From an uncultured Desulfobacterales bacterium (lineage in GTDB: Bacteria > Desulfobacterota > Desulfobacteria > Desulfobacterales > CAJINA01): a stretch of DNA of 64,000 bases. The stretch is taken from contig CAZYGG010000001.1 of NCBI GenBank assembly GCA_964647585.1, positions 99,373 through 163,372 on the forward strand, given 5' to 3'. The notes beneath the pieces are model-generated. The model was not told where the DNA came from, made no database searches, and saw only the letters and a list, made by a program, of their open reading frames with translations. Shown piece after piece: positions 3,595 to 5,667 of this stretch (position 1 is its first letter; every line of letters begins with the position of its first letter). A program made the translations under genes and the position numbers.

Positions 3595-5667
3595 ATGCGT
3601 AAAATTATAAATGTTTGCAGACAGCCTCCCATAAGCGCACCGCCGATTGCATGCCGTTATTTTTTTACCATGGCCGCCCTGCTGGTGGCCCTTCTGATCA
3701 TCTACTGGCCTGGTTTCTCAGGTGACTGGTACCTGGACGATTTTGGCAATATTCATGAAAATCCGAATGTCCACCTGACATCGCTGAACCCGGGTGAGAT
3801 TGCCAAAAGTTTTTACGGCATGGACCGGACCCACAGCCGGTTCAACCGCCCCCTTTCCTATTTATCACTGGCCCTGAATTACTATTGCGGGGGTACGCAT
3901 CCGTTCGGCTACCATGCCGTCAATTTTCTAGTTCACTACACCACGGCCGTTTTTCTTTTTCTCCTCACCCTGAATATATTGAAGCTACCGGTCTTCAATG
4001 GGAAATATGACAAGGCGGCCTACGCCATCGCCCTGCTCTCTTCTTTTCTATGGGCGACCCATCCAATTCAGGTGAACGCGGTCACCTATATCGTCCAACG
4101 CATGGCTTCCCTGGCAGGCATGTTTACGGTCCTTTCGCTTTATTGCTATGTAAAAGCCCGGACAACCCGGCAACCGGTGGATCGCGGTCCCTTTCCTTAT
4201 GGCTGGTATGCAGCCTGCCTTATCGCCGGGGCCGGTGCCATAGCCAGCAAACAAAACGCGGCCATGCTCCCTTTCAGCATTCTCCTTCTGGAGATCCTGC
4301 TGATTCGAACAGACCCGCATTCCCGGCAGACGCATCAGGTGCTCAAGATCCTGATACCACCGGCGGTGATTTTTCTTCTCTTAGTCGTCTTTCTCGGCGG
4401 TCTGACAGCCTTTCAATCCGGTTACGATTCGCGGCCATTTACCATGGCTGAAAGGCTCTTGACCCAACCGCGGGTTATCTTGTTTTACATTGGTCAGCTG
4501 CTGTATCCATCCGGAGCGACTTTTGCACTCCTGCATGATATCCGGGTTTCAACATCCGCCTTCTCACCCTGGACGACGCTCCCGGCTATCCTGCTAATAG
4601 TCGTAATCATCGGTACGGGCCTGCGGTTACATCGTAAATGGCCTCTTTTCGCATTCTGCACCCTTTTTTTCTTTTTAAACCACGCCATAGAAGGCTCATT
4701 CATCCCTCTCGAACTCATCTTTGAACATCGCAATTATCTGCCGTCGCTTTTCTTTTTCCTTCTGCCCGCAATTGGCTTCCTCAAAATAATCGACTATTTT
4801 TCATATTCTCTCTTTTTACGAAACCTGGCTGCTTTCGGCGCCATTGTGTGGATCATCGGCCAGGTGCATACGACCTACCGGCAGAATTTACTTTACACGC
4901 ATCCAGTGGCCTTCTGGATGAACAATGTCAGCCTTTACCCGAACCTGCATCGACCCCGGCATAACCTGGCCAGGACATTGTTTATCTACGGACAGGAAGA
5001 TGAAGCTGAAAAACAGATGTATCAATCCCTGGATGGCAAAAGCAGCGCCCGCATCCACCAGAAATATATGACGAACTACAACCTGGCCGTATACTACCTG
5101 TATCAACAGCAATATCGACAGGCTCTGGAACAGTTTGCTTCCATTTTAGAAGCAAATCCCCATGACGCCCGGACACTTCAAAAGGTAGCCGAGCTACACC
5201 TGGAAACAGATCATGAAGAAAAAGCCCTGCTTATCATTAATAAGGCTTTAGACCATCATCCGCTTTCTTCTTCGCTGCACATCGTAAGAGGCTTTGTCAT
5301 GCTTTCACTGGGCAACATTGATGCCGCGTTTAAAGAAGCCGCCCGGGCGGAAAATCTGAAGCATAATAAATTGGCGGTAGCCTACCTTCGCGGTGAAGGC
5401 CATCGGTTGCAAGGTGACCTTGATAACGCTGTAGAATATTTTGAAAAAATAAGGTCGTCGGGTACTGACCATTACGCGGCCCTGCTTGCCCTGGTAGAAC
5501 TATATTACCTGCGAGGGAATTCTGCCCGCGTGGATCAAACCCTGTCTGAACTGGGTAAAGTTACTGCCGGAAGGAATTTTGGTGATATTCTGGCAACTTA
5601 TAATCTGCGCTGGAATTATGTTGGTAAAAAACGTATGGAAAATATTGTGGCTGCGGTGCAAAGATAA
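3595..5667 (+). CDS. Polytopic membrane protein with C-terminal TPR repeats, TMTC/PMT-like GT-C glycosyltransferase candidate
   Basis: 690-aa ORF with about 10 hydrophobic segments. WYLDDFGNIHENPNV is an acidic first-loop motif like GT-C/TMTC enzymes. The C-terminal ~200 aa are TPR-like (YNLAVYYLYQQQYRQALEQF...). The start is uncertain (ATG 3595 or 3670). Confidence 0.6.
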   Translation: MRKIINVCRQPPISAPPIACRYFFTMAALLVALLIIYWPGFSGDWYLDDFGNIHENPNVHLTSLNPGEIAKSFYGMDRTHSRFNRPLSYLSLALNYYCGGTHPFGYHAVNFLVHYTTAVFLFLLTLNILKLPVFNGKYDKAAYAIALLSSFLWATHPIQVNAVTYIVQRMASLAGMFTVLSLYCYVKARTTRQPVDRGPFPYGWYAACLIAGAGAIASKQNAAMLPFSILLLEILLIRTDPHSRQTHQVLKILIPPAVIFLLLVVFLGGLTAFQSGYDSRPFTMAERLLTQPRVILFYIGQLLYPSGATFALLHDIRVSTSAFSPWTTLPAILLIVVIIGTGLRLHRKWPLFAFCTLFFFLNHAIEGSFIPLELIFEHRNYLPSLFFFLLPAIGFLKIIDYFSYSLFLRNLAAFGAIVWIIGQVHTTYRQNLLYTHPVAFWMNNVSLYPNLHRPRHNLARTLFIYGQEDEAEKQMYQSLDGKSSARIHQKYMTNYNLAVYYLYQQQYRQALEQFASILEANPHDARTLQKVAELHLETDHEEKALLIINKALDHHPLSSSLHIVRGFVMLSLGNIDAAFKEAARAENLKHNKLAVAYLRGEGHRLQGDLDNAVEYFEKIRSSGTDHYAALLALVELYYLRGNSARVDQTLSELGKVTAGRNFGDILATYNLRWNYVGKKRMENIVAAVQR

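Follow-up and report, generated by a model that had tools for sequence, protein, structure and literature searches.

The window is the whole 64,000-nucleotide stretch of DNA that we analysed, from an uncultured Desulfobacterales bacterium. Beside a cluster of pilus genes it carries an open reading frame (ORF) with an ATG start and a product of 690 amino acids, referred to below as the GT-C gene after the glycosyltransferase class that its membrane domain resembles (Table 1). The ORF is a genuine gene and not a chance reading frame. A word-indexed search found more than 3,620 homologues of the protein, which is a lower bound, and a tblastn search of plasmids returned no matches.

Table 1. Features of the locus, in window positions.
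Feature	Position	Strand	Basis
Minor-pilin-like gene, 3′ part only	1..483	+	cluster mp10, N_methyl in L080
Putative tip adhesin, 1029 aa	499..3588	+	Pfam
Candidate TMTC-type GT-C membrane glycosyltransferase gene with C-terminal TPR domain	3595..5667	+	ORF, homologues, AlphaFold model
Membrane (putative catalytic) domain, residues 1–447, 11 predicted TM helices	3595..4935	+	hhalign, Foldseek
D48-D49 codons, DD motif of first predicted periplasmic loop (TMTC motif M1)	3736..3741	+	invariance, TMTC1 alignment
Predicted periplasmic TPR domain, residues ~445–690, seven hairpins	4927..5664	+	Pfam, DSSP on model, PDB searches
Intrinsic terminator hairpin, 10 bp stem then T-run, 3′ of pilin, between the convergent genes	5709..5733	-	sequence
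Prepilin (major-pilin candidate), convergent with GT-C gene	5742..6206	-	N_methyl 5e-7, GspG/PilA N-terminal matches
Sigma-54-type promoter-like element 5′ of pilin	6284..6297	-	sequence reading
Sigma-54 enhancer-binding protein	6476..7822	-	Sigma54_activat 1.1e-73, HTH_8
Pilus machinery block	8099..17754	-	Pfam
PilC/T2SSF	8099..9340	-	Pfam
PilB/MshE-type ATPase with MshEN domain	9465..11168	-	Pfam
AAA_22 MshM/ExeA-like protein	11184..12887	-	Pfam
Secretin	12921..14507	-	Pfam
Two small genes	14578..15093, 15141..15701	-	
PilM-like protein	15841..17754	-	Pfam

The putative adhesin ends 7 nt before the start of the GT-C gene, so the two are probably co-transcribed. It has an N-terminal hydrophobic anchor and matches Beta-prop_ACSF4 (5.6e-35) and PQQ_2 (7.4e-20), with a weak match to L-type lectins (1.7e-4). 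The full operon is found on another contig (L080), where three minor-pilin-like genes are followed by the adhesin and then the GT-C gene; the minor-pilin cluster mp10 is present in 17 loci.

On the opposite strand, the stop codon of the candidate major pilin lies 74 nt from that of the GT-C gene. The pilin has a cleavage-type motif GG/FTLIE (predicted leader MRKKYLLKDEGG/FTLIE, the slash marking the cut), and its true start is likely the ATG at 6155, which is preceded by GGAGG. The element upstream of it reads GGCAT-N5-...TTGC, with a spacing of GG-N10-GC, and could be a sigma-54-type promoter, the gene for an activator being adjacent. The activator itself has N-terminal hydrophobic segments and lacks a Pfam receiver-domain match. 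The first-pass annotation had placed the GT-C gene 7 nt after a lectin/propeller gene and converging on a pilin gene, and our measurements agree. The GT-C gene is therefore co-oriented with the adhesin and not with the pilin, which we counted against the pilin reading developed below. We also searched the window for genes that might supply a sugar donor (GT2, flippase-like, and DegT partners) and found none; the only matches were weak and lay in a sugar cluster that is unrelated and 44 kb distant. The lack of a GT2 synthase in the window was counted in the same way.

The C-terminal part of the protein is readily assigned. Pfam places TPR_19 (E = 1.9e-13), TPR_14, TPR_12, and TPR_2 on residues ~445–660, and in the full-length AlphaFold model (pLDDT 83.7, pTM 0.77) DSSP assigns residues 452–689 to fourteen helices, i.e. 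seven hairpins. TPR proteins also rank top in PDB sequence and fold searches with the full-length protein. Together with 11 predicted transmembrane (TM) helices, these results bear out the earlier description of a multi-TM N-terminal half followed by a TPR array. Because the protein has 11 TM helices and a basic N-terminus, its C-terminus is predicted to be periplasmic, and the TPR domain is presumed to be an acceptor-binding module.

The N-terminal half is harder to recognise. Pfam and NCBIfam gave TPR matches alone, whether the query was the complete protein, its membrane domain by itself, or the fourteen family members that we scanned, and the Pfam GT-C models (PMT, PMT_2, and DUF1736) had no match in the window protein or the fourteen members at E ≤ 10. 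The public label is accordingly ‘tetratricopeptide repeat protein’ alone, because the models in these collections miss the putative catalytic domain. When a sequence profile from the full-length alignment was searched against the PDB, TPR proteins dominated the results, and the same search with the membrane domain alone returned no matches.

Profile–profile comparison gave a different result. Using hhalign, we aligned the family profile to a published alignment of the N-domains of human and fly TMTC1–4, and obtained a probability of 99.8 per cent (E = 4.9e-29) over 386 columns, spanning residues 24–428 of the query and 5–432 of the template. Reversed and column-shuffled controls behaved as a null (P = 0.07–0.56). 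Searches with hmmsearch against human and fly TMTC1–4 were also positive (E = 1e-15 to 1e-27), and ArnT was not significant in the sequence comparison. TPR proteins swamped Foldseek when the full-length model was used, so a separate model of the membrane domain was required (pLDDT 73, moderate confidence). The top twelve PDB matches to this model are all GT-C enzymes (PglB, STT3, ArnT, AglB, and AftA), with probabilities of 0.98–1.0, TM-scores (TMq) of 0.42–0.50, and modest E-values of 2e-3 to 0.14; after these, values fall sharply to a probability of ~0.15 and a TM-score of ~0.14. The moderate pLDDT and the modest E-values were both entered against the main reading. Taken together, the profile and model comparisons support assigning the membrane domain to the GT-C class, and specifically to the TMTC type.

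Of the profile matches that the first-pass annotation had proposed to look for, PMT_2 and DUF1736 are missing, and TMTC is found. It had named the lack of any GT-C profile match as grounds for giving up the idea, and read literally the Pfam result is such a lack, whereas hhalign, hmmsearch, and Foldseek favour GT-C. Its proposal of a TMTC-type layout holds, with homology to the TMTC1–4 N-domains preceding the C-terminal TPR array.

The conserved residues point in the same direction. The acidic motif noted earlier in the first loop is YLDDFGNIHENPNV (residues 46–59, nt 3730–3771). It follows TM1, which is the helix at residues 18–42 in the model, and D48 and D49 show no variation among 47 homologues of 37–70 per cent identity. 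In the hhalign alignment their counterparts are D52 and D53 of TMTC1, and by analogy they are presumed to be the catalytic or acceptor-activating acid pair. Roughly forty-five membrane-domain residues are invariant across homologues in this identity range, and those in the 47 sequences also include R85, P86, H107, N110, H114, R169, K219, N221, R287, T290, P305, E373, H378, N380, Y381, and P383. The conserved motifs DD (48–49), RP(L) (RPL, 85–87), HP..R (HPIQ...R169), K(E/Q) (K219-Q220), and E..Y.PS (E377..Y381-x-P-S) all fall on predicted periplasmic loops.

The motif set of the animal enzymes runs from M1 to M7 (DD; SHKSYRP; RxD; KE(T/Q)xxT; DW; M6; ERxxY), of which M1, M2, M3, M4, and M7 are assigned roles in binding the acceptor, the metal, and the lipid phosphate (PMC7801869). 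Present in the GT-C protein are M1 (DD), M2 (RP), the Arg of M3 (R169), M4 (K219), and M7 (E377..Y381-x-PS). The Asp of M3 is missing, and DW (M5) has no clear counterpart in the family alignment or in hhalign. The metal-ligand Glu of M4 is replaced by Gln in the window clade (Q220, in SKQNAAM), though most of the family has Glu. The Gln in M4, the unclear DW, and the missing Pfam or NCBIfam GT-C match were all weighed against the main reading.

Could the protein instead be a structural factor in pilus assembly, with a TPR role like that of MshN, PilF, or PilW and a membrane domain that serves as an anchor and transfers no sugar? TPR proteins are standard in type IV and MSHA pilus clusters, and Pfam shows no separate MshN/PilW-type TPR gene in the pilus cluster of the window. 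The NCBIfam match to type_IV_pilW (TIGR02521) is weak, however, at 35.3 bits (35 bits when rounded) against a cut-off of 154, and the conserved polytopic domain of 447 residues sets the protein apart from the TPR-only periplasmic proteins and lipoproteins of that kind. Moreover, the ~45 invariant positions include DD and the donor-binding motifs, which is unexpected for a plain anchor, and donor-synthesis genes co-occur in related loci (see below). We regard this explanation as very improbable, and the invariance of the catalytic-type membrane residues led us to reject a PilW/MshN-type assembly protein as the leading interpretation. An O-oligosaccharyltransferase of the Wzy_C type was also rejected, because there was no Wzy_C match in Pfam even at E ≤ 10.

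We compared the surroundings of the GT-C gene across 80 related loci, 58 of which had at least 1 kb of flanking sequence on both sides. In 57 of the 80, and in 47 of the 58 with full flanks, the distance to a prepilin gene is no more than 600 nt, so the pilin linkage that the first-pass annotation had proposed to check is the rule. It takes two independent forms: the pilin is convergent in thirty-four loci and directly upstream on the same strand in sixteen. This linkage is seen down to 40 per cent identity, in genomes labelled as Desulfobacterales, Syntrophales, Desulfobulbaceae, and Syntrophorhabdaceae. One carrier in which the gene adjoins the pilin gene is the cultured Desulfonema magnum 4be13 (L004). 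The pilus-machinery genes of the window flank the GT-C gene in 22–36 related loci, with PilB, PilC, the secretin, and the sigma-54 activator the usual companions of the GT-C and pilin pair. Tandem arrays of two to five GT-C copies sit beside pilin genes in nineteen loci.

Genes for lipid-linked sugars are linked to the GT-C gene in many of these genomes. A GT2 that ends in two hydrophobic helices, a layout that resembles polyprenyl-phosphate sugar synthases, is nearby in 26 of the 80 loci. Other neighbours include a flippase-like LPG_synthase_TM, a DegT aminotransferase, a sugar nucleotidyltransferase, and methyltransferases; at least one gene from this whole set, GT2 included, was found in 36/80. 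We also aligned fifty-two neighbouring pilins and looked for a conserved Ser/Thr glycosite, but none was convincing (the top column is S/T in 35/52). The lack of a shared pilin glycosite was counted against the main reading.

The same neighbourhoods bear on which molecule would receive the sugar. One alternative is an active TMTC-type glycosyltransferase that modifies the adhesin, the minor pilins, or a wider set of periplasmic and surface proteins, and not the major pilin. The GT-C gene is directly 3′ of the adhesin (7-nt gap) in a minor-pilin/adhesin operon both in the window and in L001, and in ~20/80 loci the neighbouring slot is filled by a large putative adhesin of cluster Adh or c12. 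The absence of a conserved glycosite in the major pilins fits this alternative too, as does the fact that animal TMTCs act on beta-sandwich cadherin domains. Nevertheless, homologues of the window adhesin occur in only 7/80 loci, compared with 57/80 for an adjacent major-pilin family, and no adhesin intervenes in the sixteen loci where the pilin gene immediately precedes the GT-C gene on one strand. We therefore consider a different protein acceptor unlikely. The first-pass annotation had offered the pilin or the adhesin as target, and the counts favour the former.

A second alternative, which we judge still less probable, is that the acceptor is an exopolysaccharide, LPS/lipid A, or another glycolipid and that the connection to pili reflects co-regulation only. 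Most of the fold-matched GT-Cs (ArnT, AftA, and Emb) do act on lipids or glycans, GT4, PMT_2-type, and other glycan genes lie near the GT-C gene in some loci, and tandem GT-C arrays could make a polymer. Yet the specific sequence relatives are the TMTCs, which are protein O-glycosyltransferases, with ArnT not significant by sequence, and a C-terminal TPR domain is a hallmark of the protein-directed GT-Cs TMTC and TfpW. Adjacency to pilin genes in two orientations is also tighter than co-regulation demands.

Relatives of the protein adjoin a major-pilin gene in most of the genomes examined, so glycosylation of the pilus is the most likely role. Our main reading, to which we give a rough probability of 0.6, is that the protein O-glycosylates pilin in the periplasm, with a lipid-linked sugar as donor. 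Its catalytic activity, the pilin as acceptor, the O-linkage, and the kind of sugar are all inferred. The enzyme would sit in the inner membrane with its N-terminus in the cytoplasm and its conserved loops and TPR domain in the periplasm. There it would move a sugar onto Ser or Thr of the major pilin, the product of the adjacent gene, while this subunit is still anchored in the membrane and has yet to join the fibre, and the TPR domain would grip the folded acceptor. Further acceptors may include minor pilins or the adhesin. Mannose should not be assumed, because the neighbours found elsewhere (DegT, NTP transferase, and methyltransferase) argue otherwise; these genes suggest a modified sugar instead, such as an amino, deoxy, or methylated one.

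The membrane domain defines a very large superfamily, with 14,875 clusters (at 50 per cent identity) matching its profile alone at E ≤ 1e-30 and 81,171 at E ≤ 1e-3. Full-length prokaryotic homologues of TMTCs, including a deltaproteobacterial one, had been noted earlier without a function (PMC7801869, 2021), and the conserved linkage to a major pilin provides a concrete, testable hypothesis for them. More tentatively, and at somewhat less than even odds, the large, unannotated bacterial TMTC branch may, at least in Desulfobacterota, consist of O-glycosyltransferases dedicated to type IV pilins and supplied by polyprenyl-phosphate sugar modules encoded nearby. Tandem arrays would then build multi-site or multi-sugar decorations on the pili of syntrophic and sulfate-reducing bacteria, and the animal cadherin enzymes would descend from a bacterial system that glycosylates adhesive filaments on the cell surface. 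If the pilin hypothesis holds, TfpW-style pilin glycosylation would reach beyond a few Gammaproteobacteria to anaerobes that are dominant in the environment, whose pili are discussed in connection with syntrophy, electron transfer, and phage attachment. Human TMTC enzymes are linked to brain malformation and deafness, and bacterial relatives would offer tractable models for their poorly understood mechanism.

Animal TMTC1–4 (CAZy family GT105) are protein O-mannosyltransferases for cadherins and protocadherins. The window protein is homologous to them over the entire 11-TM N-domain and has the same order of a GT-C domain followed by a C-terminal TPR array. The motifs common to both are F/W-x-x-DD-x-x-A/N-I-x-x-N, RPL...LN, (Y/F)H-x-VN...H, HPI(H/Q)..AV...V.R, K(E/Q), TR.LT...P, and E(x)R.Y.PS. 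Unlike the TMTCs, which reside in the ER, the window protein is bacterial and predicted to be periplasmic, its context points to pilins and not cadherins as acceptor, and the lipid that carries its donor sugar would be a polyprenyl phosphate of the bacterial kind. It also differs in that Pfam DUF1736 (the TM7–TM8 loop) misses it, DW is unclear, and the M4 Glu is Gln.

Other bacterial systems share parts of this arrangement. TfpO/PilO and PglL are likewise polytopic enzymes of the inner membrane that draw on lipid-linked donors to glycosylate pilins on the periplasmic side, and tfpO adjoins pilA, but they belong to a different family (Wzy_C/O-antigen ligase) and transfer preassembled oligosaccharides. 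Three-component extracytoplasmic glycosylation combines a GT2 polyprenyl-phosphate glycose synthase, a small flippase, and a GT-C (PMC11127046). The related loci resemble such systems in having a GT2 with C-terminal TM helices near the GT-C gene (26/80) and flippase-like genes in several cases; L002, L013, and L049 are examples that carry both. In contrast, the window GT-C has no nearby GT2 or flippase, carries a TPR domain, and appears to be protein-directed.

A further parallel in overall design is TfpW (AAM52060.1), the D-arabinofuranosyl transferase for the group IV pilin of P. aeruginosa. TfpW is a GT-C protein of ~650 amino acids with 11 predicted TM helices; DDX is found in its loop 1, and a TPR domain at its C-terminus is periplasmic. 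Its gene adjoins pilA, its best structural template is ArnT, and it is needed for pilin glycosylation and sufficient for it in P. aeruginosa PAO1 (bioRxiv 10.1101/2020.04.19.049825). Some details differ. The TfpW gene follows pilA in the same orientation, whereas the window pilin is convergent (sixteen related loci do have the pilin and then the GT-C gene on one strand). Of the proline-rich YX6PFX7P motif in periplasmic loop 4 of TfpW, the window protein has a conserved Y298-x6-P305 where loop 4 begins, without the following F or second P, and the D-Araf donor pathway (DprE1/E2) stands against the GT2, DegT, and NTP-transferase neighbours in related loci. The first-pass annotation had likened the two in logic, which undersold the analogy: judged by the published description of TfpW alone, the architecture matches as well, with an 11-TM GT-C domain, DD in loop 1, a C-terminal TPR domain, and a gene next to a pilin.

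The GT-C gene encodes 690 aa and starts with ATG, 7 nt after the stop codon of the adhesin gene. As the first-pass annotation had described, it converges on the prepilin gene and carries an acidic loop motif and a TPR tail. The two stops are 74 nt apart, and the motif (YLDDFGNIHENPNV) covers residues 46–59. On a longer contig with an identical protein, the plus-strand operon runs from three minor-pilin-like genes through the adhesin gene to the GT-C gene. The minus strand beyond the prepilin gene encodes a sigma-54 activator, PilC, PilB with an MshEN domain, and an AAA_22 MshM/ExeA-like protein, followed by a secretin, two small genes, and a PilM-like protein. 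Together with the prepilin gene, this is a complete pilus cluster.

Features of the GT-C gene neighbourhood and of other regions of the window
Feature	Position	Strand	Remarks
Adhesin gene, 1029 aa	499-3588	+	Beta-prop_ACSF4 5.6e-35, PQQ_2 7.4e-20, weak L-type lectin-like match (Pfam)
GT-C gene	3595-5667	+	690-aa ORF, ATG start
Terminator hairpin, strong	5733-5709		Between the prepilin and GT-C stop codons
Prepilin gene	5742-6206	-	N_methyl 5e-7; GG|FTLIE
Sigma-54-type promoter element	6284-6297	-	GG-N10-GC, upstream of the pilin gene
Sigma-54 activator	6476-7822	-	Two N-terminal hydrophobic segments
PilB-type pilus ATPase	9465-11168	-	MshEN domain
AAA_22 MshM/ExeA-like protein	11184-12887	-	567 aa, long Pro/Ala-rich linker
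Hybrid PAS histidine kinase and response regulator	18152-21796	+	HD_5 (HD-GYP-like) domain in the regulator; directly past the pilus cluster
Sugar-nucleotide cluster	49507-61943	+	Low GC (0.42-0.47); 44 kb from the GT-C gene

No receiver domain was matched in Pfam for the sigma-54 activator, which has hydrophobic segments and so may be membrane-anchored rather than PilR-like. MshEN is a c-di-GMP-binding module of MSHA systems, and its presence in the pilus ATPase, together with the nearby hybrid kinase and HD_5 regulator, hints at c-di-GMP control of the window pilus. The C-terminal domain of the AAA_22 protein is conserved and has no Pfam match; some loci keep only the N-terminal ~280 residues.

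TPR repeats (residues ~445–660) are the sole Pfam and NCBIfam matches in the window protein, and by these scans it is neither a Wzy_C-type TfpO/PglL enzyme nor a PilW/MshN-type TPR protein. With the threshold relaxed to E ≤ 10, Pfam still gave no family for its N-terminal 447 residues or for 13 other family members, and a PDB search with a sequence profile of the membrane domain gave no match. Homologues are named 'tetratricopeptide repeat protein' in public sources, while a few JGI entries carry the name 'protein O-mannosyl-transferase'. Read to the letter, the first-pass annotation's own criterion of a missing GT-C profile match would have refuted the idea, and more sensitive tests were therefore needed.

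An alignment of TMTC1-4 N-terminal domains was published with Eisenhaber et al. 2021 (supplement, PMC7801869), and we compared a family profile with eight sequences from it, human and fly. Using hhalign, the two matched with 99.8% probability (E = 4.9e-29) over 386 aligned columns (query 24–428, template 5–432). Controls with the TMTC alignment reversed or column-shuffled gave P = 0.07–0.56, and ArnT, whose sequence that supplement also contains, was not significant against the family. Single TMTC sequences were found by hmmsearch with the family HMM at E = 1e-15 to 1e-27 (Z = 1e6). The likeness can be seen by eye in the motif pairs (TMTC sequence second) GDWYLDDFGNIHENPNV/GEFVHDDVWAIVNNPDV, NRPLSYLSLALN/YRPLCVLTFKLN, FGYHAVNFLVH/FYFHAVNIILH, THPIQVNAVTYIVQRMA/VHPIHTEAVAGIVGRAD, SKQNAAM/VKETGIT, and EHRNYLPS/AERVLYMPS. 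These correspond to TMTC motifs M1, M2, M3, M4, and M7, which have been assigned to acceptor activation, metal binding, and lipid-phosphate-sugar binding (PMC7801869). The window protein differs from TMTC in lacking the Asp of M3 and a clear counterpart to the DW motif found in the DUF1736 loop; most family members keep the M4 Glu, but the clade of the window protein has Gln at that position. Eisenhaber et al. had already remarked on full-length TMTC homologues in poorly characterised prokaryotes and named a deltaproteobacterial one whose function is not known (PMC7801869). By sequence, the window protein belongs with the TMTC-type GT-C enzymes, as first proposed, and it would work in the same way.

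AlphaFold modelled the full-length protein with confidence (pLDDT 83.7, pTM 0.77), placing 14 TPR helices after 11 membrane helices; the Foldseek matches of this model are exclusively TPR proteins. When the membrane domain was modelled alone (residues 1–447; pLDDT 73, pTM 0.81), the top twelve PDB matches were all GT-C enzymes (PglB, yeast and mammalian STT3, ArnT, AglB, AftA), with probabilities of 0.98–1.0 and query TM-scores of 0.42–0.50. After the twelfth, the list falls abruptly to unrelated transporters and GPCRs (probability ~0.15, TM ~0.14). With E-values no better than modest (2e-3 to 0.14), these matches alone give the fold class, GT-C for the modelled domain, and nothing beyond. Judging from the model and the sequence, the 11 helices and basic N-terminus would place the conserved motifs and the TPR domain all in the periplasm; basic residues are concentrated in predicted cytoplasmic loops (192–199, 238–248, 345–349).

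A word-indexed search found over 3,620 homologues, and the membrane-domain profile matches 81,171 50%-identity clusters at E ≤ 1e-3 (14,875 at E ≤ 1e-30). Among the species-representative genomes scanned, that of the Olavius algarvensis Delta 4 endosymbiont has the nearest copy (76% identity). Desulfobacterales and Syntrophales account for most of the remaining close relatives, and other groups for a few. An alignment of 47 sequences, 37–70% identical to the window protein, has ~45 invariant positions, nearly all in the membrane domain. They include D48 D49, R85 P86, N95, H107 N110 H114, P157, Q168 R169 M170 and, later, K219 N221, R280 R287 T290 P292 R293, P305, E366 E373 H378 N380 Y381 P383. 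A purely structural role like that of the TPR proteins MshN and PilW would suit the TPR array; with catalytic-type residues conserved in the membrane domain, we consider it very unlikely.

The scan of species-representative genomes confirmed 586 relatives. Open reading frames from the best 79 loci (up to 10 kb of flank per side) and the window were clustered together, giving 80 loci. The window pilin's family was found in 64 of these. In 57, no more than 600 nt (mostly under 200 nt) separate a GT-C gene from the nearest pilin gene, and the same is true of 47 of the 58 loci whose flanks reach at least 1 kb on each side. The pilin gene is downstream and convergent in 34 loci, as in the window, and immediately upstream on the same strand in 16, resembling pilA-tfpW. 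The pair is joined by PilC, PilB, the AAA_22 protein, the secretin, and the sigma-54 activator in 22–36 of the 80. A typical genome has a handful of prepilin genes among thousands, which puts chance adjacency well below 1% (a rough figure, not computed). Since the link spans 40–76% identity, several orders, and both gene orientations, members of this clade are as a rule linked to pilus genes.

Nineteen of the same 80 loci (L017, L029, L030, L049, L060, and 14 more, mainly from Smithella and Syntrophales genomes) have tandem arrays of 2–5 GT-C/TPR paralogues with one to three pilin genes alongside, often adjoining GT2, DegT, NTP-transferase, methyltransferase, and flippase-like genes. The GT-C-adjacent pilins are short (mature median 117 aa across 52 loci, the window's included), and many end in a W-x-x-P-like motif. 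Cysteine is absent from 43 of the 52, which thus lack the usual C-terminal disulfide loop. The slot after the minor pilins holds one of two unrelated large proteins (~870–1030 aa), the window adhesin or cluster c12 (13 loci). They share a similar N-terminal hydrophobic segment and differ in their C-terminal domains (lectin/beta-propeller in the window), and look like interchangeable tip adhesins. The window's operon order would fit an enzyme acting on the adhesin, on minor pilins, or on a number of surface proteins; no more than 7 of the 80 loci have the adhesin family, and we think such acceptors unlikely.

A GT2 (Glycos_transf_2, 1.3e-31) with two C-terminal hydrophobic helices lies within 10 kb in 26 of the 80 loci (window plus best 79 of 586), a layout we take to be that of polyprenyl-phosphate sugar synthases (GtrB, ArnC, DPM1). 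Other recurrent neighbours are flippase-like LPG_synthase_TM proteins, a DegT-family aminotransferase, a sugar-1-phosphate nucleotidyltransferase, methyltransferases, GT4, and a PMT_2-type GT-C; at least one donor-side gene, GT2 or another, is present in 36 of the 80. These genes resemble the three-component extracytoplasmic glycosylation scheme of GT2, flippase, and GT-C (PMC11127046). This gene content of the related loci suggests that the sugar is a modified amino or deoxy sugar and not mannose. A GT2 of this type is absent from the window. The window's distant sugar-nucleotide cluster encodes a nucleotidyltransferase, two dehydratase/epimerases, a split transketolase pair, a zinc dehydrogenase, a kinase/cytidylyltransferase fusion, and two C-methyltransferases, which suggests that it makes a branched or methylated deoxysugar. 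Donor-side genes would also be compatible with a non-protein glycan or lipid as acceptor, which we find quite improbable given the pilin linkage.

Beyond the family, fold class, TMTC homology, catalytic-type residue conservation, and pilin linkage described here, we infer an activity, an acceptor, a linkage type, and a sugar. With a probability of roughly 60%, the protein is an inner-membrane enzyme that O-glycosylates the pilin subunit from a polyprenyl-phosphate monosaccharide before assembly. The enzyme would take the monosaccharide off its carrier at the periplasmic face, with the DD loop and K/R/E/Y residues of the periplasmic loops serving catalysis and donor binding. The TPR domain would grip the prepilin or pilin, folded and anchored in the membrane, while the subunit is O-glycosylated ahead of pilus assembly.

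TMTC homology, GT-C fold, and pilin linkage support the original candidate glycosyltransferase reading. The GT-C gene is well supported as encoding a pilin-linked GT-C/TPR protein glycosyltransferase of TMTC type, a further member of a known group with a predicted activity. A large family whose members are annotated as TPR proteins and nothing more thereby gains a function that can be tested. Subscription journals apart, we found no paper on Desulfobacterota or Syntrophales that ties TMTC-like proteins to pilins. The proposed analogy is with TfpW of P. aeruginosa, which has 11 TM helices, a loop-1 DDX motif, and a C-terminal periplasmic TPR domain; its best template is ArnT, its gene adjoins pilA, and it is required for pilin glycosylation (bioRxiv 10.1101/2020.04.19.049825). 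The YX6PFX7P motif of TfpW is present only in part in the window protein. Judged by the published description, the architecture and gene neighbourhood are exactly those reported for TfpW.
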